In this document: positions 21,828-60,564 of the stretch, in pieces
Layout: every line of letters begins with the position of its first letter
Position numbering within the stretch: position 1 is the first letter of the stretch
Source: a virus
Taxonomy: Duplodnaviria; Caudoviricetes
Direction: 5' to 3' (one strand)
Virus record (IMG/VR): IMGVR_UViG_3300025519_000052
Span: 1 to 64,000 of that record
DNA length: 64,000 nucleotides
Translations under genes and position numbers: made by a program
The notes under the pieces: generated by a model
The model's input: only the letters and a program-made list of their open reading frames with translations
What the model was told of the DNA's origin: nothing
The model's database searches: none

Positions 21828-23525
21828 TTATAGGACAATTATGTCTCTTTCTTCATAAACACTTACTAATCCTTCTTCAACATCCTTATTCCAAAGGACC
21901 ATTGCATTCAGAGTGGCAGCAACCATATCAATTTTGCCGGTTGATTTCTTTTTATTTACGTAAGTATTCAAGTTATTGTCTTTAACTTCGCGAGCATTTG
22001 AGAAGTTAATTTCTAATAATTTGTTCTTTATATATTTGAAACTTCCTTTTAACACTCGTTCTTTTAAAAGTTTAGTTGCAGGATGCAAAACACTTGAATG
22101 TTGCTTTATTTCAATTGTATTATATCCAGCTTCATACCATCTGTTAGCAGAAGAAATAGCATTATAACGGTCATAACCAATACCGCGAATTTTTACACCA
22201 TATTTTTCTTCAAGCGAAAGAACAAAATCTTCTACAAATCTATAACTTATAACTTTATCTCCACAAAAGAAGCAATATCCATTGTCCCTCATTATAAAGT
22301 AATCAATTTTTTCAACTCTACTTTTTTCATGGGCTCTTTCCTCTGGGATAAATGCCCATGCCTGTGCAACATATTCATCTTTTTCAACGTCATAAGTTAC
22401 CATTGAAACTGCTGTATTGTCTGTTGTTTGAGATAAGTCAACACCAACATAGACTTCTCTTCCTGTCCAATCATATTCATCAATTCGTCCTTTTTTAAGT
22501 TCTTCAGTTGGAATATAAACTTCTGAATCATCACCATCAACGAATATATTCATATGCTTAGTCAAGAAGTTTTTCTTAGTGCTTGGAAGTTCAATTGCTG
22601 TTTTTCTTTTTTTCTTCAAATATTCTAGGTTCTCTGGAAGATCATTACAAAGAGGATTTGCTTCCAATAATGATTTATCAGATAACCAATCTTTCGGATC
22701 ATCTGGTGCATAAATTAAAGCAAATAAAGTTTCATCTTGAATTAATCCATCAAGAACTTTCTTAGCAAATTCAACTTCTTCAGCCATCGGATTATTCAAT
22801 GATTCATATGCTGTTGAGATTAATATTCCTGTACGGTTGACCATGTTCATCTGTGAAGATTGCATGGCATCAATTGGATAACGATTTCTTAAAGCACCAA
22901 CTTCATCAGCAACAAATACATTTGCTTTACGGCCATCCATCCTGTTTTCAGAGTAAGCAAGTGGAACAAATTTAGATTTTGTAAGAGTACATCTAATTTC
23001 GCTCCTTGTAATCTGGAAATATTTTTGGATTAATGGGGAAGCTAATATTGCTTGCTCAACTTCCTTCTTAACGATAGAAGAAAGTTCTCTATCTGGCGCG
23101 ACTGAATAGAACTCTGAAAATTCAGGTTCAATCAATAACAGAATTATAAAGATCAACGCAACTAAGAATGATTTACCTGATTTACGAGCAATAAGTAGAA
23201 CTGATTTTTCATATCTTCTTTTTATTGGATTATCTTTGTGCTTCCAACATAAAGCATTAACTAAAAAGAACCATTGAAATGGAGCCAATGCGTCATGTGT
23301 TGGAGTACCAGCTTTTAATCCAGAAGCCATGTTAATCAATTTTGTAAGATCAGTAATCTTCTTTAGTTCATTTTCATCAATAAAATATTTTGAATCCTCA
23401 TTATTTAATTCATCTAAGAATTGTTGACATGCTTTTATAACATACTTACCAGCAATGATATGTTTCTCAGTTACTTGGAGAGCATACTGATAAGCAGCAT
23501 GATCCTTAATGTATGAGGAAACCAT
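21828..23525 (-). CDS. terL: Terminase large subunit
   Basis: Walker A ARKSGKS, Walker B VADE, GVDLSQTTD nuclease motif, GKIDMVAA. Confidence 0.97.
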   Translation of the reverse strand: MVSSYIKDHAAYQYALQVTEKHIIAGKYVIKACQQFLDELNNEDSKYFIDENELKKITDLTKLINMASGLKAGTPTHDALAPFQWFFLVNALCWKHKDNPIKRRYEKSVLLIARKSGKSFLVALIFIILLLIEPEFSEFYSVAPDRELSSIVKKEVEQAILASPLIQKYFQITRSEIRCTLTKSKFVPLAYSENRMDGRKANVFVADEVGALRNRYPIDAMQSSQMNMVNRTGILISTAYESLNNPMAEEVEFAKKVLDGLIQDETLFALIYAPDDPKDWLSDKSLLEANPLCNDLPENLEYLKKKRKTAIELPSTKKNFLTKHMNIFVDGDDSEVYIPTEELKKGRIDEYDWTGREVYVGVDLSQTTDNTAVSMVTYDVEKDEYVAQAWAFIPEERAHEKSRVEKIDYFIMRDNGYCFFCGDKVISYRFVEDFVLSLEEKYGVKIRGIGYDRYNAISSANRWYEAGYNTIEIKQHSSVLHPATKLLKERVLKGSFKYIKNKLLEINFSNAREVKDNNLNTYVNKKKSTGKIDMVAATLNAMVLWNKDVEEGLVSVYEERDIIVL

Positions 23526-23667: not shown

Positions 23668-24162
23668 TTATGAGCTTCTTAATATTTTTAATAATGGATC
23701 AGCTTCTTCTTTTTTCTTCTCAATCTTCATTCCAGCTAATTGAGCACGAGATGATGGACTTAATCCAAGTTGAGTTGCCAAAAATCTAAATTGATTAAGA
23801 TATTTTTGTTTAGTCCCAACAGCTGGATTTTCTTTCTCTATTTCATGACCATAACGGTCAATTTGCTTAATTATAATACCTTCTTCATTAATTATTTTAT
23901 CAGCTTGTCTCATTTTACTTAGACAATCAGCAGTTTGTTCGAGTAATGGCTTGTCTAAGTTTGACAAAATATCATTAATCTCTAATTCATTAACTAAAAA
24001 TGTATAATATTCTTTGGCAAGCTCATCAAGATGTTCAGGAACTTTATAAATTAAATCCTTGTTTCCTATAAGCTTTTGCTCTTCTGCTGCGCGTTTTTTT
24101 AATTGGGCTTTAGACTCTGAATGTCCTTGTTTAAGAGATGCGGGCTTTTTAGGCCTTGCCAT
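23668..24162 (-). CDS. terS: Terminase small subunit (P27 family)
   Basis: MARPKKP start, ENPAV, LGLSPSSRAQL motifs. Confidence 0.93.
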   Translation of the reverse strand: MARPKKPASLKQGHSESKAQLKKRAAEEQKLIGNKDLIYKVPEHLDELAKEYYTFLVNELEINDILSNLDKPLLEQTADCLSKMRQADKIINEEGIIIKQIDRYGHEIEKENPAVGTKQKYLNQFRFLATQLGLSPSSRAQLAGMKIEKKKEEADPLLKILRSS

Positions 24163-24180: not shown

Positions 24181-24621
24181 TTAAAGCTTGAAATCAAAAT
24201 CTGTATTTTTTAAATCAATATTCGGCTTGAAATCTAACTCTTTATTTGTACCAAGTTGTAAGTTACAAGTTTTACAAAGTGTAATCAGATTTGATTCATC
24301 ATAGATTAAATCAGGGTACTCAATACGAGGTTTTATATGATGAATTTGTAAATTCTCACTGTTAATAATGCCATACTTAATAAGACATCTTTGACAAATT
24401 CCCTTATCTCTTTTAATTATTAGAGAACGAAGTTTTCTCCATCTAGCTGTTTTTAACGGTGCTAAAATCTCTTTGTGCTCTTTATAATAATTTCGTTGAT
24501 ATTTATTTTTGTTATTTCCCTTTTTGCAAGAACAAGTTTCATTAAACGGTATTCGCTTACCACAATTTGAGCAAATCTTCATTTTCTTGTTGCTCATCTT
24601 CATCATCCAACTCAAATTCAT
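24181..24621 (-). CDS. HNH endonuclease (cos-packaging type); true start probably a downstream Met
   Basis: RWRKLR...RDKGICQRC...IHHIKP...NLITLCKTCN; immediately upstream of terS. Confidence 0.9.
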   Translation of the reverse strand: MNLSWMMKMSNKKMKICSNCGKRIPFNETCSCKKGNNKNKYQRNYYKEHKEILAPLKTARWRKLRSLIIKRDKGICQRCLIKYGIINSENLQIHHIKPRIEYPDLIYDESNLITLCKTCNLQLGTNKELDFKPNIDLKNTDFDFKL

Positions 24622-24790
24622 CTAATTCTTCTTGTTCTGCACCGCAATAAGAACACTCATATACTATTTTTCCTTGTTCATTTTTATATTTAATAATATG
24701 AGAACCACAATATTCACAAATTTTCCCTGTGCGATTATCCTTCATTTTTCTCACTACTTTTAAACTCATTTTGAAGTTAATCTCAAACAA
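24557..24790 (-). CDS. Small zinc-ribbon protein
   Basis: CEYC...CSYC with an acidic tail. Confidence 0.6.
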   Translation of the reverse strand: MFEINFKMSLKVVRKMKDNRTGKICEYCGSHIIKYKNEQGKIVYECSYCGAEQEELDEFELDDEDEQQENEDLLKLW

Positions 24791-25266
24791 ATTGCTTTTT
24801 CATACACTTAAAATGTCTCTATTTAAAAATATCTCTATAATATAATGTGCACAACTAGAAGTTTTCAGACACATTTTACATAAAAAATTAAAAAATTTTT
24901 TCAATAAAGCACGTACAATAAGTCAAAAAATAGTGCAAAAAAATAAGCAGCCAATAAGCTGCTTTATTGAATTGGCTTCATAATATGTTCTTAAGAATCC
25001 AATATCTTTTTCCATAGGTGTCTGAACTTAACCTCCACATGTTTGTTTTCATCTTCCGTATATCATGTAGATTGAAAATCTGAACAAAAACAAAAAATTA
25101 TTGCTGCGAATTTGACTCATACGGCTTGCATTTTGTTTCAGAGGGTTATTGCAAAGGGGTAAGGGTTAAAATGCGATACAGTGAGAATATGGAGTCCTGT
25201 GGGCAAAATAAAAAGCCTATTGATTTCACGCAAAAATCTCGTTTTGGGATGTTCGTTGTGAACGAA

Positions 25267-25320
25267 CCCCCGCGGTCTATCCCGTTGTCTGAATATTTTT
25301 TTTTTAAAAAGTAGGGGGGA
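25267..25320 (-). other. Candidate cos (cohesive end) site
   Basis: Minus strand TATCCCCCCTAC...CGGGATAGACCGCGGGGG: C-run then a GC-rich core in an AT-rich spacer upstream of HNH-terS. Confidence 0.5.
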
Positions 25321-25614
25321 TACTTTTTTCAGAAATTTTTTAGCTTCCAAATTTTATAATCAAAAAATATATCCACTATGCCCTGCAATTTCATCAAATT
25401 AAACGAATTTGAGAGAATTTTTGATATATAAAATATCTCCAAACAATATTAAATTATGATCAACGGTGCGATTTCTTAAAGATAATTAAAAAACAAACGA
25501 AGCATGCAAAAACAATAGACAAATAATATCAAACCATTTTGCTGAGATTAACAAAATAGTAATTCAAAAGCAAAAAGAATAAGTAATCATAAACCCTCAC
25601 ACTATGCCTGCTAC

Positions 25615-25649
25615 CCCATTAAAGAACCCCATTAAAAGAGCCCATTAAA
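25615..25649 (+). repeat. Triple CCCATTAAA direct repeat, 13-bp period
   Basis: Copies at 25615, 25628, 25641. Confidence 0.8.
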
Positions 25650-25698
25650 TAAGAACATAAAGGATTAAGAAAGATACTGCTAACCAGAACTCTTAGCT

Positions 25699-25724
25699 TT
25701 ACAAAAATAATTAACTCGATATAA
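25699..25724 (+). promoter_or_regulatory. TTAC-N15-GATATAA promoter motif
   Basis: Exact motif. Confidence 0.75.
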
Positions 25725-25759
25725 AAGTATAGGTATTTAATTTTTTATTTATAAATCCT

Positions 25760-25785
25760 TTACAAATACAATCTTCAAGATATAA
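25760..25785 (+). promoter_or_regulatory. TTAC-N15-GATATAA promoter motif (upstream of candidate ncRNA)
   Basis: Exact motif. Confidence 0.75.
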
Positions 25786-25799
25786 ATATACAAGAATAA

Positions 25800-26116
25800 C
25801 TTAATACATTTGCAGACATATTAGAAGCTGAGAGTTAAACTGCATTATCAAATATAACTCCAAGGTTAGCTGAAGCCGATGCTATAAAGTTCAGCCGTTG
25901 GATATACCAATTGATCGATAGTAACCGACCTTATTACTAATCTTGCAATCAGTTGGTAAGTTATCCATCGTAAGGGCTTTTGATGTTTGAGCCTTGATGA
26001 ATTAACATCTTAATCAACATCGGGAGGAGAACTCAATTAGAGGTTGATAACGCTGGCCACAAGTAAGGTTATCATTTGTCTCTACTGGAAGCTTGTGGAG
26101 TATATACTGGCTTATT
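25800..26116 (+). ncRNA. Candidate structured non-coding RNA of about 300 nt
   Basis: ORF-free island, GC-richer than its flanks, with at least eight complementary segments including a 17-bp bulged helix and several pseudoknot pairings; lies downstream of two promoter motifs. Confidence 0.55.
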
Positions 26117-26287
26117 ATATATAAATTAAATAAAAAATTAAACATAATAAATAAAATAATTATATAAATAAATAAATAAAAATAAAACAAATAACTAAAT
26201 AAAAAATAAAATAAAAATAAAAATAAATAATTAATTAATCTAGAATTGCTTTAGCAATTCGAGAAGGCGAAGCCGTAAGGCGAGCCT
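26117..26287. other. Candidate replication origin: near-pure A/T tract followed by hairpins
   Basis: About 120 bp of AAAT/AAAAT low complexity with almost no G/C, then GAATTGCT-TT-AGCAATTC and AGGCGAAGCCGTAAGGCGAGCCT. Confidence 0.45.
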
Positions 26288-26553
26288 AATAGATAACTAT
26301 ATTACATATCAATTAACTTAAATATAAAAATCAAATACAAATAACAATAATAATTATTAATTATAAATTAATCAGAGAAGTTATCTATGGTTATTAAGTA
26401 TAAATAAGTATTTGAATAAAAAGAAATATACACTACCATAAAAACTCTAAAGAATATTTATATTATTCATCTAATACAAATCTTAAGGCTCATCATTTAG
26501 CTTGCCTTAGGATTGGCAAACGGACTTGAAACAAAAATTTGTAATCTTTAAGC

Positions 26554-26579
26554 TTACGTTTTAATTTCTTTCGATATAA
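26554..26579 (+). promoter_or_regulatory. TTAC-N15-GATATAA promoter motif
   Basis: Exact motif upstream of the 26629 ORF. Confidence 0.75.
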
Positions 26580-26628
26580 GGAATTGCGTAATAACTCAAT
26601 TGCCTTATAGAATTGGAGGAAATTAACG

Positions 26629-26919
26629 ATGTTTGAAGATTACATTATCACAAAGCATGCTATTGAAAGATATGCAGAAAGGATTAAATGCAATAAGAAA
26701 GATATTATTAAAAGAATCAAAAATGATTTATATTTTACTAAAGTAAAAAAAATTATTAACAATGGTGATACTCGTTATGTATTTACACGTAACTCTAAAG
26801 AATTCATCTTTAAGAATGATAACGGTAAATGGATTTTAAAAACAGTTATTAAAAGAAGCAGAAATACAAATGCATATGCAATGCAAAAGAGAGCCAGATT
26901 ATCTAATTCTGCAGTTTAA
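26629..26919 (+). CDS. Small basic protein with HAxERxxER motif (RelE/DUF4258-like fold?)
   Basis: ITKHAIERYAERI; GGAGG RBS. Confidence 0.45.
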   Translation: MFEDYIITKHAIERYAERIKCNKKDIIKRIKNDLYFTKVKKIINNGDTRYVFTRNSKEFIFKNDNGKWILKTVIKRSRNTNAYAMQKRARLSNSAV

Positions 26920-28402: not shown

Positions 28403-28876
28403 ATGCTGGATATTTGTGTCGAGAAATTAAATACTGGAAGTTGGAAATGGTTTAACCTAGATAAAGTTGGAGCCGACGAAATTCAAGAATGGTTGAATGG
28501 CCAAGAATGGGAAATTGTTGATATTGAAGGTGGAAACACCTTGTATCGTGAATTAAGATATATGCCATTTGAAAAAATTAAAGAATTAAATGAAATGATT
28601 GAAGATGAACAACATTTGCAAATTGCAATTGAGATTTTAAAAAGAGGCATTGTAAATAATCTTGAAGAAGCATTGGAATATGAAAATTACAGATTATATA
28701 ATAATTGTAGTAGTATGGAAGATGTTGCTTATGAAGTTGTTGAAGAAAGTGGAATGTTGAGTGATGTTCCGGATCATTTAAGTAGATATTTCGATTATTC
28801 CTCTTATGGTCGTGATTTAGAAAGTAATGGTACATTCGTTCAATTAGATAATAATACGTACTTAGAAATTTGGTAA
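28403..28876 (+). CDS. ardA: ArdA antirestriction protein (DNA mimic)
   Basis: Acidic; SMEDVAYEVVEE...VPDHLSRYFDYSSYGRDL signature. Confidence 0.88.
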   Translation: MLDICVEKLNTGSWKWFNLDKVGADEIQEWLNGQEWEIVDIEGGNTLYRELRYMPFEKIKELNEMIEDEQHLQIAIEILKRGIVNNLEEALEYENYRLYNNCSSMEDVAYEVVEESGMLSDVPDHLSRYFDYSSYGRDLESNGTFVQLDNNTYLEIW

Positions 28877-28997: not shown

Positions 28998-30068
28998 ATG
29001 GCCAAATTTAACGCACAAGCAAATTTTACAGCTGAACTTGATGGAACAACTGTGAATGAAATAAATAAAAAACTTGACTACTCAAAAAATAAGTTAGATG
29101 ATCGTAAAAAAATCGTTGAAGATATTTTAAACGAAACAGACTTCTTTGTTGAATATTTCTCTGAATATTTTAATCCAAATATTAATAATGTAGATTATCT
29201 TTCATCTAATATTAACGTCTGCAAATCTCTTGAAAGAATGGCAAATTACCTTCTTAACTCAAAAGAAATTAAGCAGCAAGAAGATGCTGAAAAAACTCAA
29301 TATGTCTTTTATACTGATGAAAAATATTTTCAAAGGAAATTAAATAAAGAAAAGTCTATCGAGTCAATTACACAAGATAATAAAGATAATGTAATTCACT
29401 TTTTGAAACGCAACGAACCAAACTACAAAAAAGAGAAAAAACAAACTATCAATTTGACCAGAAACGATAAAGTGAGATTTAAAAATAAAGCTGTTAAGAA
29501 AAATGAACAAGAATTAAAACGAATTCTCAATGATTATCAGCAGTTTCATGATTTTCTTACTGAAAAATTAGTTGATAAAAATAAATTAGCTAACCGATAC
29601 CTTTTATCGAAAACAAAAAGCCAGGTTGAACAAGATATGATTTATACCAAAGACTCTTTCTTAAGGATTTTTGGTTATAATCTTCAAAACTTCCATGAGT
29701 CAACTGTTCCAACCTTAGATGTTTTTGATTTTACGAATCCTCTACATGTTAAAGGTGGAAAAGTAACTTTTGTTGATAATGCAGGAAATGAGCATGAAGT
29801 TTATGCTAAAGGCTTATTGTATTTCAAAAATGATTTTGATCCAAATAATGAATTTAGTTTTGTTATTGCCGATTTCAATAAAACTGTGGATCAAGCCGGG
29901 TTAACTAATGATGAAAAATTTGTATTGAATTCAATTCGTAACGGTTTAACTCAAGAAGAAATTGCTGCTGAGCTTGGAACTTATCAGAAAAAAATTTCAA
30001 GGATGATAGATATAATTGCTAACAAAGTAATGAGAGTTGGAAATAAATATGACTTAGCAGAGGAATAA
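28998..30068 (+). CDS. Protein with C-terminal sigma-region-4/LuxR-like HTH; putative transcription factor
   Basis: GLTNDEKFVLNSIRNGLTQEEIAAELGTYQKKISRMI. Confidence 0.6.
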   Translation: MAKFNAQANFTAELDGTTVNEINKKLDYSKNKLDDRKKIVEDILNETDFFVEYFSEYFNPNINNVDYLSSNINVCKSLERMANYLLNSKEIKQQEDAEKTQYVFYTDEKYFQRKLNKEKSIESITQDNKDNVIHFLKRNEPNYKKEKKQTINLTRNDKVRFKNKAVKKNEQELKRILNDYQQFHDFLTEKLVDKNKLANRYLLSKTKSQVEQDMIYTKDSFLRIFGYNLQNFHESTVPTLDVFDFTNPLHVKGGKVTFVDNAGNEHEVYAKGLLYFKNDFDPNNEFSFVIADFNKTVDQAGLTNDEKFVLNSIRNGLTQEEIAAELGTYQKKISRMIDIIANKVMRVGNKYDLAEE

Positions 30069-54279: not shown

Positions 54280-54717
54280 ATGACTAGAGAATGCTCAACT
54301 ACTGAACCAAAAATCATTATTTTAGAAGGTGTTGATCGTGTTGGTAAAAGTACTTTGAAAGACACAATTCATAAGTTAACCAATTTCAAACATTTCTTAA
54401 TTGATCGAGGACCAATTTCATACATGGCGTACTGTGAAATTTTTAATAGGCCTATAGATTTGTATTTAAAATATTCAGACATGGAAAAAAGGCTTGCTAA
54501 AATGCCAAATGTTTTGGTGTTTTATTTAACTGCAAATAATGAAACTCTTGTTGATCGTTGTATTGCAGATAATCATGAAATTATTGACTTTGATTTTCAT
54601 AAGCAAGTTTTTGAAAGAATTATAAAAACTTCTCCACTAAAATCGATTACTATCGATACTTCAAATAATTCTTCTGAAAGCATTGTTACAGATTTAATTA
54701 AAGAAGGTGTTTTGTAA
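54280..54717 (+). CDS. Nucleoside monophosphate kinase (dTMP-kinase-like)
   Basis: ILEGVDRVGKST P-loop, IDRG. Confidence 0.85.
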   Translation: MTRECSTTEPKIIILEGVDRVGKSTLKDTIHKLTNFKHFLIDRGPISYMAYCEIFNRPIDLYLKYSDMEKRLAKMPNVLVFYLTANNETLVDRCIADNHEIIDFDFHKQVFERIIKTSPLKSITIDTSNNSSESIVTDLIKEGVL

Positions 54718-54718
54718 T

Positions 54719-55171
54719 ATGAATAAAATTATAATTTATACCGATGGAGGCACTCGTGGGAACGGTAAAGAGTGCAATGTCGGTGGTTTTGGAGCCGTTC
54801 TTCAATATGGTAACCATACTAAAGAAATCTATCAAGGCTTTAGAAATACAACAAACAATCAAATGGAATTAAAAGCTGCAATTGAAGCCTTAAAACAAAT
54901 AAAGAAGTTTAATATTCCTGTTTATGTTTATTCAGACTCTGCTTATCTTGTTAATTGCATGAATCAGAAATGGTATAAAAAATGGATGAACAATGGCTGG
55001 ATAACCTCTAGTAAGAAGACTGTAGAAAATCGTGAGCTCTGGATTGAATTAATTGAATTGGTTCAAAAATTTACGTTTATAACTTTTATAAAGGTTAAAG
55101 GCCATAATGGTAATCCATTAAATGAACGCGCTGATCAATTAGCAAATCTTGCTATGGATTCAGTATCTTAA
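54719..55171 (+). CDS. rnhA: Ribonuclease HI
   Basis: YTDGG, TTNNQMEL, YSDSAY, KVKGH, NERADQLA. Confidence 0.95.
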   Translation: MNKIIIYTDGGTRGNGKECNVGGFGAVLQYGNHTKEIYQGFRNTTNNQMELKAAIEALKQIKKFNIPVYVYSDSAYLVNCMNQKWYKKWMNNGWITSSKKTVENRELWIELIELVQKFTFITFIKVKGHNGNPLNERADQLANLAMDSVS

Positions 55172-56451: not shown

Positions 56452-58924
56452 ATGACAAAGCTTGGCTATTATGGGAATCATAACCACACAGATGCGAGCA
56501 ATTTTCGTTTGCGCGACGCAATCAATAAGCCTGAAGAACTTCTTGAATATGCTTTAAAGATTGGATTATCTGGAATTTCAATTACAGATCATGAAACATT
56601 AGCTTCACATGTAAAAGCTTATAAATATCTTCAAGCAAATAAAGAGAGATTTGGAGATTTTAAGCTCGGTTTTGGTGATGAAATTTATCTAGTAGATAAA
56701 GAAGACATTTTAAATAAGAAAAAACAAAATGAAAAGATTAATTTCTATCACTTTATTTTGGTCGCTAAGAATCAACATGGATATGAAGGACTTAAAAAGA
56801 TTTCCTCAAAAGCTTGGCATAATTCATTTTTCTACCGTGGAATGGAAAGAGTACCAACCTATAAAGATGAATTGATGACAATCATGGAAGAATATCGTGG
56901 AGATATTCTTGCTACAACTGCTTGTATTGGTGGAGAATTACCACAATTATTAATCAAATATCATGATGAACCAACCCGGGAAAACAAGTTGAAAGTTCAT
57001 AATTTTATTGTTTGGCTTAAGGGTGTTTTTGGTGATGATATTTATTTTGAGTTGCAGCCATCTCATAATAGAGACCAAGTTGTTGCCAATGAAATGTTAT
57101 ATAAAGTAGGTAAGGCATACGGAGTTAAGTGTATTGTTGCAACCGATGCTCATTATTTAAATCCTTCATTTGCAAAAACTCATGAAATTTATTTAAAAGC
57201 TTCAGAAGGAGAGCGCGAAGTCGCTGAATTCTATGCTACTACTTATTTAATGTCTCATGATGAATTACTTGAATTTTTTAATCCAACTCTTTTAGAAGAA
57301 CTTGAACAAAATACTCTTGAGATTCGCGAGAAAATCGGTGAGATTACTTTTGAGCAGGAAATTAAAGTTCCAAGAGCGCATATTCCTAAATTTGAATTAA
57401 ATCCATTATTCCAACCATTTTATGATAAATATGAATACATTAAGAAATATTCTGAAAGCAGTTATGATGTTGATCGTTACTATCTTCATTTGATTGCTGA
57501 AGGCATGATTGCAAAGAATCAGGAATTGAATGATACAAACTTAAGTCGCATTAATCTTGAATTAAATGAATTATATCATATCAGCGAAAATCTCGGACAA
57601 CCAATGTCATCTTATTTTGTTCTTACAAAAGATATTGTTGATTTAATGTGGGAAGTTTCATTAGTTGGAGTTTCTCGTGGCTCTGCAAGCTGTTTTTATT
57701 TAAATTATTTATTGGACATTGTTCAAATTAATCCATTGAAATATAACTTACCTCACTGGCGATTTATTTCAAAGGAACGCCCGACTTTACCAGATATTGA
57801 TATTGATACAGAAGGTTCAAAACGGCATGAAATTATTCATATTGCAAAAGAGCATTACGGAGAAGAAAATGTTTTAAACATGGGAACTTTCACAACTGAA
57901 GGTACTCGTTCAGCCGTTTTAACTGCTTGCCGCGGATTAGGAATTGATAATGATATTTCTCAAAATATCGCTAATCTTGTTCCAACTGAAAAAGGTAATA
58001 AACTTTGGTCATTAAGTGAATGTTTCTATGGTGATGAAGCAAAAGGTAAAAAACCAGCAAGAGAATTTGTTAACGAAGTTGCTAAATTTAAAGGATTAAA
58101 AGAAGCAATGCTATCAATTGAAGGATTGATTTCTGGACGCAGTCAACATGCTTCTGGAGTTATTATCTTCCCAGATGGCTATATCAAGCAAAATGCAATG
58201 ATGAAAACTACATCTGGCTTGCCAGTAACTCAATTTGATGCTGTAGATACTGAATATATGGGCGGTTTAAAATTAGACTTCTTATCAATTAACGCTTTGG
58301 ACAGAATCAGAGCTTGTATGGAACTTCTTCTTGAGCATGGAAAAATTGAATGGCAAGGTTCATTAAGAAAAACTTACAATAAATATTTTCATCCTGATGT
58401 ACTTGAAATGGAAGCACCGGAAATGTGGGATATGTTGTTTGAAGGTCATGTTTTAAATGCTTTCCAATTTGAAACTGATGTTGGACAACAAGCATTAAGA
58501 AAAATTAATCCCCGTTCATTTGATGAATTATGTGCTAGTAACTCATTAATGAGATTAAGTGCTTCAGATGGTGAGCAACCAATTGATAAATATGTTCGAT
58601 TTAAGAATGATATTAGCTTGTGGTACAAAGAAATGGATGAAGCTGGTTTAACTAAAGAAGAACAAAAAGTATTAGAAGATTTACTTCTTGATCGATATGG
58701 AATCTGTGATACACAAGAATTTCTTATGCAGATTGCCATGAGTCCAAAAATTTCAGGTTTTACCTTAACACAAGCAAATAAATTTCGTAAGGCTGTTGCT
58801 AAGCAAAACGAACAATTAATTGAAGAACAAAAACAAATATTCTATTCTCAAGGTGAAAAAATCGGTACTCGAAAAGAATTTCTTGATTATGTTTGGAATA
58901 AAGAATTAAAACCTCAATTTGGGT
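56452..58924 (+). CDS. dnaE: DNA polymerase III alpha subunit, exon 1
   Basis: PHP domain HNHT/ITDHE, SRGSA, PDIDID, KLDFL. Confidence 0.95.
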
Positions 58925-59230
58925 GAACATGCACGCCCAAGTAAAACTCGGTGAACCAAGGCCATGGGTGTCATATGTAAATATATCCCAGTTCTCTATA
59001 TAATATTTACATATGGCTAACGGGGAAACCTGTAAGATGGCAATCCCGTGCCAAGCCAATGAATTTTTCATTGGAAGGTGTAGAGACTATTATGTAGGAC
59101 AACTATTGGCACGTTGTTCGAAGCGCCGAGCAATAATGTGTTATTATTTCTTTAAGAAAGATAAATTAAAATGAGTCAACACATTATTGAAGATATAGTC
59201 CACTCCGTATGGAAACATACGGGATAAGTG
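58925..59230 (+). ncRNA. Group I self-splicing intron (306 nt, no homing endonuclease ORF)
   Basis: Splicing restores GGG-TAT-GCA (G-Y-A-F-S-L-P-H); exon ends in U and intron in G; P1 TTGGGT/GCCCAA; core AATCCCGTGCCAAGC, GTAGAGACTA, AAGATATAGTCC; P9 CCGTATG-GAAA-CATACGG. Confidence 0.95.
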
Positions 59231-60564
59231 ATGCATTTTCACTTCCGCACATCTCGGGGTATTCATTAATCTTGATGATTGAGATGAATATTTGTTATCG
59301 ATTTGGTCCAGTTTGGTGGAAGACAGCTTGTTTATCTGTTAATGCAGGATTAATTGGTGAAACTGAGAAAAATACAAAATATGGTGCGGTTGCTAAAGCT
59401 GTTGGAGATATGCATGGTGATGTTTTGAATCCTGATATTAACCTTTCTAATGTAGGATTTACTCCATTGGAAAAGGAAAACAAGATTCTATTTGGTTTAA
59501 AACCTATTGTTGGCTTAGGATCCAATGACATTGCAGCAATTATTGAAAATCGACCATTTAAAGACTTCAAAGACTTTTTTGTTAGAATGATTAAAACCAA
59601 AATTCTTTCTGAAGCAAAAGGCATAACATTAATTAAAGCTGGATGCTTTGACAAAATGAATCCAAACAGAAGAGAACTGATGATTGCTTATGTTCGAGCA
59701 ATTACACCTAAAAAAGAAAAACTTACAATGACACAACTACCTTCTATTATTCAGTTTATAGATAAAAATAAATATTCAAAAGAGCTTGCAGCTTATAAAC
59801 TTAGGAACAAATTATTTGGAAGAAATAAAGTTCCAATGACTAAAGAACTTGAACATGAATTTATGTTATTCTTGAAAGCTTACCCTTTTGAAGTTGAATA
59901 CGATTTTCAAGATGGACAATTGGTTGTTGATCAAAAATCATTCGATAAAGCCTATAAACAAATTATTAAACCATTGAAAGAATGGGTTACTTCTCCAGAA
60001 GCAGCTCAACTGTATAACAAAATTAAAATGCAAGAATTCTGGAAAAAGAATTGTATGGGCACAATTGAAGCATGGGAAATGGACACTCTATTGTTCTATT
60101 CTGACAAACATGAGATTGATTATATGCCTTTAAGCAAGTATTTCAATATATCAAGCTTTAACAAGCTTCCTCGAGAGCCAGTTATAACTGGTTATAAAAG
60201 TTATAGAGGTAGACAAATTCCTCAATATAAGATTGATATAATTGCTGGTACGGTTGTTGATAAGAATAAAAACAAATCTCTTGTTTATGTATTAACGCAG
60301 GACAGTGGCGTTGTTACTGTTCGGTATTCTAAGAGCCAATTCGCCCATTATGATAAAAAAGTGGTTCGTGTAAATGGGAAAAATAAAGAAATACTGGACC
60401 CAAGTTGGTTTGATCGTGGCACCAAACTTATTCTTATAGGATTTAGAAGGCAAGATGAGTTCGTATTAAGAACAACAGGCAGTATATTCAACCATACAAC
60501 TATTAAAATATTGGGGTATAACAGTCATAATGTATACTTTCAACAAGAAAAAGCCGAGGCTTAA
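59231..60564 (+). CDS. dnaE: DNA polymerase III alpha subunit, exon 2
   Basis: AFSLPH, LIKAGCFD, C-terminal OB fold. Confidence 0.93.

Follow-up and report, generated by a model that had tools for sequence, protein, structure and literature searches.

The large ornate RNAs GOLLD, ROOL, and OLE have been studied by cryo-EM (PMC12286853). The phage RNA reported here resembles all three in its elaborate pseudoknots and in the combination of a conserved core with a variable periphery, and it shares with GOLLD and ROOL that it is carried by phages or prophages. As in GOLLD and OLE, its self-complementary elements covary from one palindrome to another, and oligomerization of the phage RNA is something that we infer. 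By contrast, there is no sequence or structure match to any of the three, the phage RNA is much smaller (190-330 nt vs. 600-800 nt), and its known members belong to one lineage of Bacillota phages of about 80-97 kb, where it is not located at tRNA islands.

The phi29 pRNA is likewise a phage-encoded structured RNA with a strong early promoter and a gene near a genome end or junction, and it self-associates through complementary elements, as the phage RNA may do. It differs in that pRNA comes from protein-primed, phi29-like podoviruses lacking TerS and HNH, whereas the phage studied here has HNH, TerS, and TerL. It is these genes that adjoin the RNA, and not a phi29-like motor consisting of a gp16 ATPase without TerS. 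Copies of pRNA join hand in hand through two different loops, as opposed to the palindrome of the phage RNA. No mutually complementary loop pair of the pRNA-ring type was found in the latter, in which the covarying palindrome would allow a symmetric dimer, and there was no covariance-model match to pRNA.

With ColE1 RNA II, T7 phi1.1A/B, and T4 oriF/oriG, the locus has in common one or more promoters followed by AT-rich DNA, and the availability of RNase H. Unlike these origin transcripts, the phage RNA keeps its fold regardless of the AT-rich DNA downstream, is flipped or moved among relatives, and is followed by a terminator in one of them (genome G002). The T4 species 1 and 2 RNAs (rnaC and rnaD) are small, stable, and structured, have their own early expression, and sit in a tRNA cluster; they are comparable as orphan structured phage RNAs, but their sequences are unrelated.

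Comparison of homologous sequences shows decisively that positions 25812-26110 of the DNA analyzed here encode a member of a real, uncatalogued structured RNA family. Well supported and of medium size (190-330 nt), this multi-pseudoknot family joins the few structured RNAs that phages are known to encode.

Locus, homologues, and transcript limits

The DNA analyzed (the window) comprises 64 kb from the start of an IMG/VR virus record of 84,361 bp. The RNA locus lies inside a 2-kb ORF-free gap at a divergent gene junction. Rightward, on the + strand, follow genes for a 96-aa protein, an HTH regulator, a LysM-3D protein, ArdA, a sigma factor, and thymidylate synthase. A preliminary description, made from this DNA alone, had called the island free of ORFs, and there are indeed no + strand ORFs of at least 30 aa within 25314-26629. 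The features of the locus are as follows.

21828-23525, minus strand: TerL gene (565 aa), left of the RNA
23668-24162, minus strand: TerS gene (PF05119), left of the RNA
24181-24621, minus strand: HNH endonuclease gene (PF01844), left of the RNA
25698-25725, + strand: distal one of the two tandem promoters, TTTACA-N15-GATATAAA, a copy of the phage promoter word
25759-25786, + strand: proximal promoter, a copy of the same word, with a predicted start at about 25793-25796
25812-26110, + strand: conserved structured RNA core, from the 5' strand of pseudoknot PK1 to a 3' ACUGG, marked by an island of 72% identity to phage GR1, covariance-model scores, and covariation
26117-26240, + strand: A-rich tract of about 125 bp (GC 0.17-0.24)
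26243-26286, + strand: twin hairpins, GAAUUGC-UUUA-GCAAUUC at 26243-26260 and GCC-GUAA-GGC within 26266-26286

The stretch from the HNH gene to the RNA promoters (24622-25697, about 1.1 kb) has no ORFs, is not alignable to GR1, and contains a T10-A5-GTAGGGGGG run near 25296-25320; it may harbor the cos site of this HNH/TerS/TerL phage.

The preliminary description had proposed a new large noncoding RNA class that could be assigned to no known family, and the proposal is supported by strong covariation over 11 homologues and by the lack of a match in Rfam 15. At the gathering threshold, the 4227 models of Rfam 15 detected only a group I intron (58962-59222) in the whole window. When matches with E<=10 were considered between 24800 and 26800, the sole one inside the RNA was a minus-strand match to FasX, which scored 20 bits where the gathering threshold is 100. 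ARAGORN found no tRNA or tmRNA in the window.

A megablast search against phages gave no match. Distant blastn gave one, between positions 133-507 of Geobacillus phage GR1 and 25778-26178 of the window, at 72% identity and in a syntenic position with unalignable flanks; blastn with three divergent members of the family found GR1 as the sole cultured phage. GR1 is also the nearest cultured relative of the window phage (TerL identity 86.5%), and farther TerL relatives are Enterococcus VPE25-like and Staphylococcus 6ec-like phages. GR1 is a 79-kb siphovirus of 32% GC with G. stearothermophilus as its host (PMC10237291).

Further copies were recovered with a covariance model built from three sequences (R1) in combination with word searches, and covariance-model scores in relatives were 168-356 bits. 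These copies are L007 (contig 3300035670_009638), L008 (3300025519_000015; near-identical to L061, L063, and L337), L041/L042 (2756170314_000001), and L031 (3300012983_000099), and the more distant L024, L025, L198, and L199 in genomes G011, G012, G002, and G003, respectively. The copy in genome G001 (L356) was first spotted by eye and then scored 37 bits with a second model, R2, with which true members reach at least 37 bits and the background at most 18 bits. The comparative set thus consists of 11 distinct sequences from a single phage lineage, all of them in GR1-like or neighboring uncultured phages of 79-97 kb, and the GC content of the RNA is 32-38% across members. In the Sextaecvirus/Staphylococcus and Enterococcus relatives tested, the RNA was not detected (core model R2 <=18 bits). 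Searches of IMG/VR with the word patterns GAAGCTGAGAGT..AACTCCAA and TTATCAA..AAGGT..GCCG returned mostly chance matches in coding sequence; in word scans of genomes and metagenome contigs, at least one true copy, L337, was among the matches listed.

The word TTTACR-N15-GATATAAW comprises a -35 box TTTACA, a 17-nt spacer, and a -10 box TATAAA. It occurs 15 times in the window compared with 0.17 copies expected, an enrichment of about 90-fold, at sites from 25698 to 60759 that lie ahead of early and middle genes (14 of the 15 on the + strand). Two of the copies, near-consensus and of the early type, form the pair upstream of the RNA, which bears out the tandem phage promoters noticed in the preliminary description. 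In sequence, the word resembles host promoters of the sigma-A type, and a conserved GA stands ahead of its -10 box. A promoter block of the form TTTAC(A/G)-N16/17-TATAAAT is located upstream of the RNA in every homologue.

The A-rich tract at 26117-26240 is probably part of the primary transcript. A-rich spacers 3' of the core are present in the window clade and in G001 and missing in L024, L025, and L199. The twin hairpins persist with different stem sequences in GR1, L007, L008, L041, L031, and L024; because the stems differ while the hairpins are kept, in all relatives of the window clade and in L024, we consider them functional. They probably mark the region where the RNA transcript ends or is terminated, whether or not they also serve an origin. 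A simple scan found no canonical terminator 3' of the RNA in the window. The window clade has, between the twin hairpins and the first ORF, another promoter of the kind that precedes the RNA; in G002, a canonical terminator (a long stem and U7) and then a further promoter lie 3' of the core. Beyond this terminator and the next promoter, G002 has a TA-rich tract with repeated CCTATAT words of iteron-like appearance (L198:1130-1300, minus strand).

Secondary structure and covariation

The predicted structure comprises the following elements, all on the + strand.

25812-25843: pseudoknot PK1, GCAG of the leader (25812-25815) with CUGC of the P2 loop (25840-25843)
25826-25866: universal 5' core, with blocks invariant in alignments A9 and A10
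25869-25895: hairpin P3, GCUGAA/UUCAGC, with the conserved loop start GCCGAUGC at 25875-25882; compensatory changes in 5/6 pairs
25896-25970: long hairpin P4; 10 covarying pairs (helices 4-6)
25982-26021: P5, 25982-25990 with 26014-26021; 100% paired, 3 covarying pairs
25995-26010: hairpin P5a inside P5, 25995-25999 with 26006-26010, loop AAUUAA; 2 covarying pairs
26026-26083: 3' domain, GGAGA (26026-26030) with UCUCU (26079-26083) around P6 and P7; GAAGA/UCUUC in L041
26030-26045: P6, 26030-26033 with 26042-26045, within the 3' domain
26045-26074: P7, 26045-26051 with 26068-26074; 4 covarying pairs
26057-26098: pseudoknot PK2, CCACAAG of the P7 loop (26057-26063) with CUUGUGG (26092-26098); 100% paired, 3 covarying positions
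26099-26110: P8 palindrome AGUAUAUACU (26099-26108), then a conserved UGG (26108-26110); the palindromes vary across lineages

Covariation in homologues, which the preliminary description had named as a check, is present. In alignment A7 (seven sequences; 76 pairs curated by hand, among them those of one pseudoknot), 93.2% of cells were paired, vs. 27-48% when the 3' partners were slid by 1-3 columns. Both sides had changed in 29 of the 76 pairs, a number that none of 500 shuffles reached (shuffle mean 12.6), and the covariation score was 0.343 vs. 0.157 in shuffles. Compensated pairs, two to five in each element, occur in P3, P4b, P4c/d, P5, P5a, P7, and the pseudoknot between the P7 loop and the 3' tail. 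P2 is invariant in A7, and distant members covary at this helix (GUCUU/AAGAC, CAUUAU/AUAAUG, AAGUU/AACUU). G·U exceeded A·C among the pairs (24 vs. 8), which favors the + strand; together with the promoters, this excess identifies + as the RNA strand. The preliminary description had also held that a real structure should fold better than shuffled controls, and here it failed, the z-scores of the minimum free energy being -0.95 (+) and -1.03 (-). Since these values are about -1 on both strands, the structure rests on covariation and not on thermodynamics; a nonsignificant z-score is compatible with a real AU-rich structured RNA.

The 5' core is composed of AGCUGA (25826-25831), P2 (25832-25837/25855-25860), the loop sequence UUAUCAA (25845-25851), and CAAGGU (25861-25866). 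PK1 ties this core to the leader. Its strands read GCAG/CUGC in the window, GGAG/CUCC in seven members, and GGUG/CACC in three members; each leader matches its own loop in 11/11 members and cross matches number 0/22, with the position of the P2-loop tetramer fixed. A further contact joins AAGG in J2/3 (25862-25865) to CCUU in the apical loop of P4 (25929-25932), and L031 has AAAG/CUUU here. PK2 is found as CCACAAG/CUUGUGG, UCGUAAG/CUUACGA, and ACAUAAG/CUUAUGU. A pairing of the P2-loop UUAUCAA with a P7 strand was considered and dropped, being inconsistent in L041.

All nine pairings read from the single sequence in the preliminary description exist where they had been placed, and seven of them stand under comparison. 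GAGTTA/TAACTC (P2), GCTGAA/TTCAGC (P3), the long P4 hairpin with its inner TAGTAA/TTACTA, TGATAAC/GTTATCA (P7), and the pseudoknot CCACAAG/CTTGTGG belong to the comparative structure. AGGGCT/AGCCTT has one compensatory change, in GR1, and is thus weakly supported; an optional helix GGGCU/AGCCU at 25974-25978/25990-25994 would turn P5 into an H-type knot. GATGTT at 25982 does have a long-range partner, but this is the second AACATC, at 26016-26021, and not the copy at 26004 that had been proposed. The pairing with the second copy is perfect and covarying in 7/7 sequences (GATGTT/AACATC, AATGTT/AACATT, AGTGTT/AACACT), while the first AACATC serves as 3' strand in a hairpin formed locally, GATG-AAUUAA-CATC. 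CCGATG/CATCGG was not supported, with zero compensatory changes and broken pairing in L031 and L041.

Some segments may pair in more than one way. UGUCUCU at 26077-26083 has an alternative partner in the leader, AGACAUA (25814-25820), and its partner is ambiguous; similarly, the 3' UCUCC can pair with a leader GGAGA or with an internal GGAGA.

Mini versions of the RNA, 190-220 nt long, are present in G012 and G002. Their middle domains are replaced, and they retain PK1, P2, the AGCUGA/CAAGGU junction, P3 with its GCCGAUGC loop, and the 3' A-UACUGG. All members thus share the 5' core and the 3' ACUGG, and the middle domains are variable or, in the mini versions, absent.

A self-complementary element near the 3' end

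Directly 3' of PK2 and before UGG sits a perfect palindrome of 8-10 nt. Six such palindromes were observed, AGUAUAUACU, AUUGUACAAU, AAUGCAUU, AUAGCUAU, AGUAAUUACU, and, in L024, CUAGCUAG, so that between lineages one palindrome is exchanged for another. As hairpins these segments are not stable (0 kcal/mol), and the homoduplexes have predicted energies of -9 to -16 kcal/mol at 37 °C and -5 to -12 kcal/mol at 55 °C.

In OLE and GOLLD, intermolecular bridges have been confirmed by covariation from palindrome to palindrome (PMC12286853). The phage RNA has a self-complementary element that covaries in this manner; by analogy it may work like OLE and GOLLD, and membership in these families does not follow. 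Copies of the RNA probably pair with each other through the 3' palindrome. The mini versions have an ordinary P8 hairpin and no palindrome, and dimerization may thus not be universal. The covariation of the palindrome suggests self-assembly in an RNA far smaller than OLE, ROOL, and GOLLD, and if it does self-assemble, the quaternary structure of natural RNA could be studied on it conveniently. A cultivable member is available in GR1, grown on G. stearothermophilus ATCC 10149, so that direct testing is possible.

Possible roles of the RNA and its gene context

As a whole, we lean slightly toward the view that the locus specifies a stand-alone, trans-acting, self-dimerizing, uncatalogued ncRNA with early-type promoters. 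The RNA folds into a compact body made up of PK1, P2, P3, the long P4 touching J2/3, P5/P5a, the P6-P7 domain, and PK2. According to this reading, 25812-26110 (+) would be the core of its gene; the transcript would end at the twin hairpins (in G002, at a true terminator); and two copies of the RNA would pair via the 3' palindrome. That the RNA would act in trans is suggested by the new promoter after it and by its change of orientation and position among relatives. In G011 and G003, it is flipped and points to HNH-TerS-TerL, and in G012, it lies between TerL and the portal gene; in none of these three genomes is there an AT-rich tract downstream. The gap in G012 that holds the mini RNA (L025:11698-12175, 476 nt) has an apparent promoter of its own inside the late operon.

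AU-rich helices in phages of a thermophile suggest that the RNA probably works as a protein-bound particle; from its 32-38% GC and the thermophilic host of the cultured member, stabilization by protein, Mg2+-dependent tertiary structure, or dimerization may be expected. A tentative guess, and one that we would sooner bet against, is that early in infection the RNA ties up a host or phage factor, or diverts it, in host takeover or antidefense.

Y RNAs and Rsr (Ro60) offer a parallel as structured ncRNAs working as protein-bound particles. They differ in that the phage RNA matches neither Y RNA nor YrlA, and in that Staphylococcus phage 6ec, whose genome contains an annotated Ro-like 'RNA-binding protein, vWA-like' gene between TerS and TerL (within L364, NC_024355.1 4000-13500), lacks the phage RNA. 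A search for the TROVE domain (PF05731) in G000, G001, G002, G003, G011, and G012 detected the controls and no other protein, and a Y RNA/Ro60 particle was rejected. In 6ec, the interval from TerS to TerL also holds an exonuclease gene and a tRNA-Pro, a homing endonuclease splits TerL, and the 880-nt ORF-free junction upstream of HNH contains no homologue of the RNA. Two candidate partner proteins were likewise discarded: the 96-aa downstream ORF is present in genomes without the RNA and missing from G012, and the '50S ribosomal subunit' protein of GR1, examined as an L7Ae-like partner, is a zinc ribbon only.

An unlikely alternative to a stand-alone RNA is a cis-acting leader, either a processive-antitermination RNA of the HK022 put or Bacillus EAR-like type or a large riboswitch gating read-through of the hairpins. 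The RNA is always upstream of, and codirectional with, a long gene array, it is followed by hairpins or a terminator, in G012 it is located inside the late operon, and the two possible GGAGA partners of the 3' UCUCC hint at alternative conformers. Because the junction is divergent, the RNA would precede some gene in either orientation, and position alone says little against a cis role. The RNA is not the sole transcriptional route into a conserved class of genes: a separate promoter of the same class between the RNA and the first ORF makes the downstream genes independent of the RNA transcript, and these genes differ among relatives (early genes, HNH/terminase, portal), which disfavors a ligand-specific riboswitch. 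Antitermination is not obviously needed, given that 14 further promoters are spread over the early region, and there was no match to an Rfam riboswitch or to EAR.

Quite improbable, too, is the suggestion of the preliminary description that the transcript serves as a replication primer or R-loop RNA. In such a scheme, the tandem-promoter transcript would enter the AT-rich tract and form a persistent R-loop, and processing by RNase H would prime the leading strand. The arrangement of tandem promoters upstream and about 125 bp of A/T-rich DNA immediately downstream fits this scheme, as does the recurrence of A-rich or TA-rich tracts after the RNA in GR1, L007, L008, L041, L031, G001, and G002. 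A cumulative GC-skew minimum falls at 25.7-25.9 kb; the skew switch coincides with the switch in gene direction and is therefore uninformative. The phage RNase H gene noted earlier does exist (54707-55171) but is not specific evidence for a primer. Against the scheme, an AT-rich tract comes after the RNA in the window clade, G001, and G002 only; the RNA is flipped in G011 and G003 and moved to the TerL-portal gap in G012, each time without the tract, and in G002 a strong terminator separates it from the TA-rich DNA. Moreover, in the window clade the A-rich tract leads to two covarying hairpins and a fresh promoter, and an initiator-like gene of GR1 is located elsewhere, at 42.9 kb. To our knowledge, a conserved tertiary fold is not required in the known origin transcripts of T4 and T7. 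The AT-rich DNA seems to go with the early side of the junction and not with the RNA.

We regard it as very doubtful that the RNA is a packaging cofactor, that is, an oligomerizing RNA of the HNH/TerS/TerL machine or the portal, comparable to phi29 pRNA, in a cos-type siphovirus. Were this true, it would explain why the RNA has been kept within a few kilobases of TerL through three rearrangements: it is 0.1-5 kb from TerL in 7/7 arrangements examined, which include three placements, and its self-complementary element suits oligomerization. The linkage is weakly informative, since the placements are local rearrangements of one junction. The promoters, in addition, belong to the early class that serves genes of replication and nucleotide metabolism, the TerL relatives in Enterococcus and Staphylococcus phages do without the RNA, Rfam gave no pRNA match, and we know of no terminase-type motor that needs RNA.

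Hardly credible is an element acting as DNA, such as operator palindromes, hairpins of single-stranded DNA, a cos site, or a site bound by terminase. In its favor, the locus adjoins the HNH-TerS-TerL genes, the usual location of cos in phages that depend on HNH, and it has palindromes inside. Against it, compensatory changes keep pairing rather than sequence across nested helices and pseudoknots up to ~50-260 nt apart, G·U is three times as frequent as A·C, and every member has a conserved, correctly oriented promoter.

Returning to the stand-alone RNA, 2.5-3 kb downstream of it and in the same early block are genes for the antirestriction protein ArdA (28403-28876) and a phage sigma factor (28998-30068). 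With early promoters beside genes of these two kinds, the RNA may reveal an RNA-based mechanism of host takeover or antidefense.

Elsewhere in the window, the group I intron (RF00028, 71.9 bits, + strand) interrupts the phage DNA polymerase III alpha gene, its flanking ORFs being 56452-58926, with PHP, pol3-alpha, and finger domains, and 59209-60564, with HHH_6.
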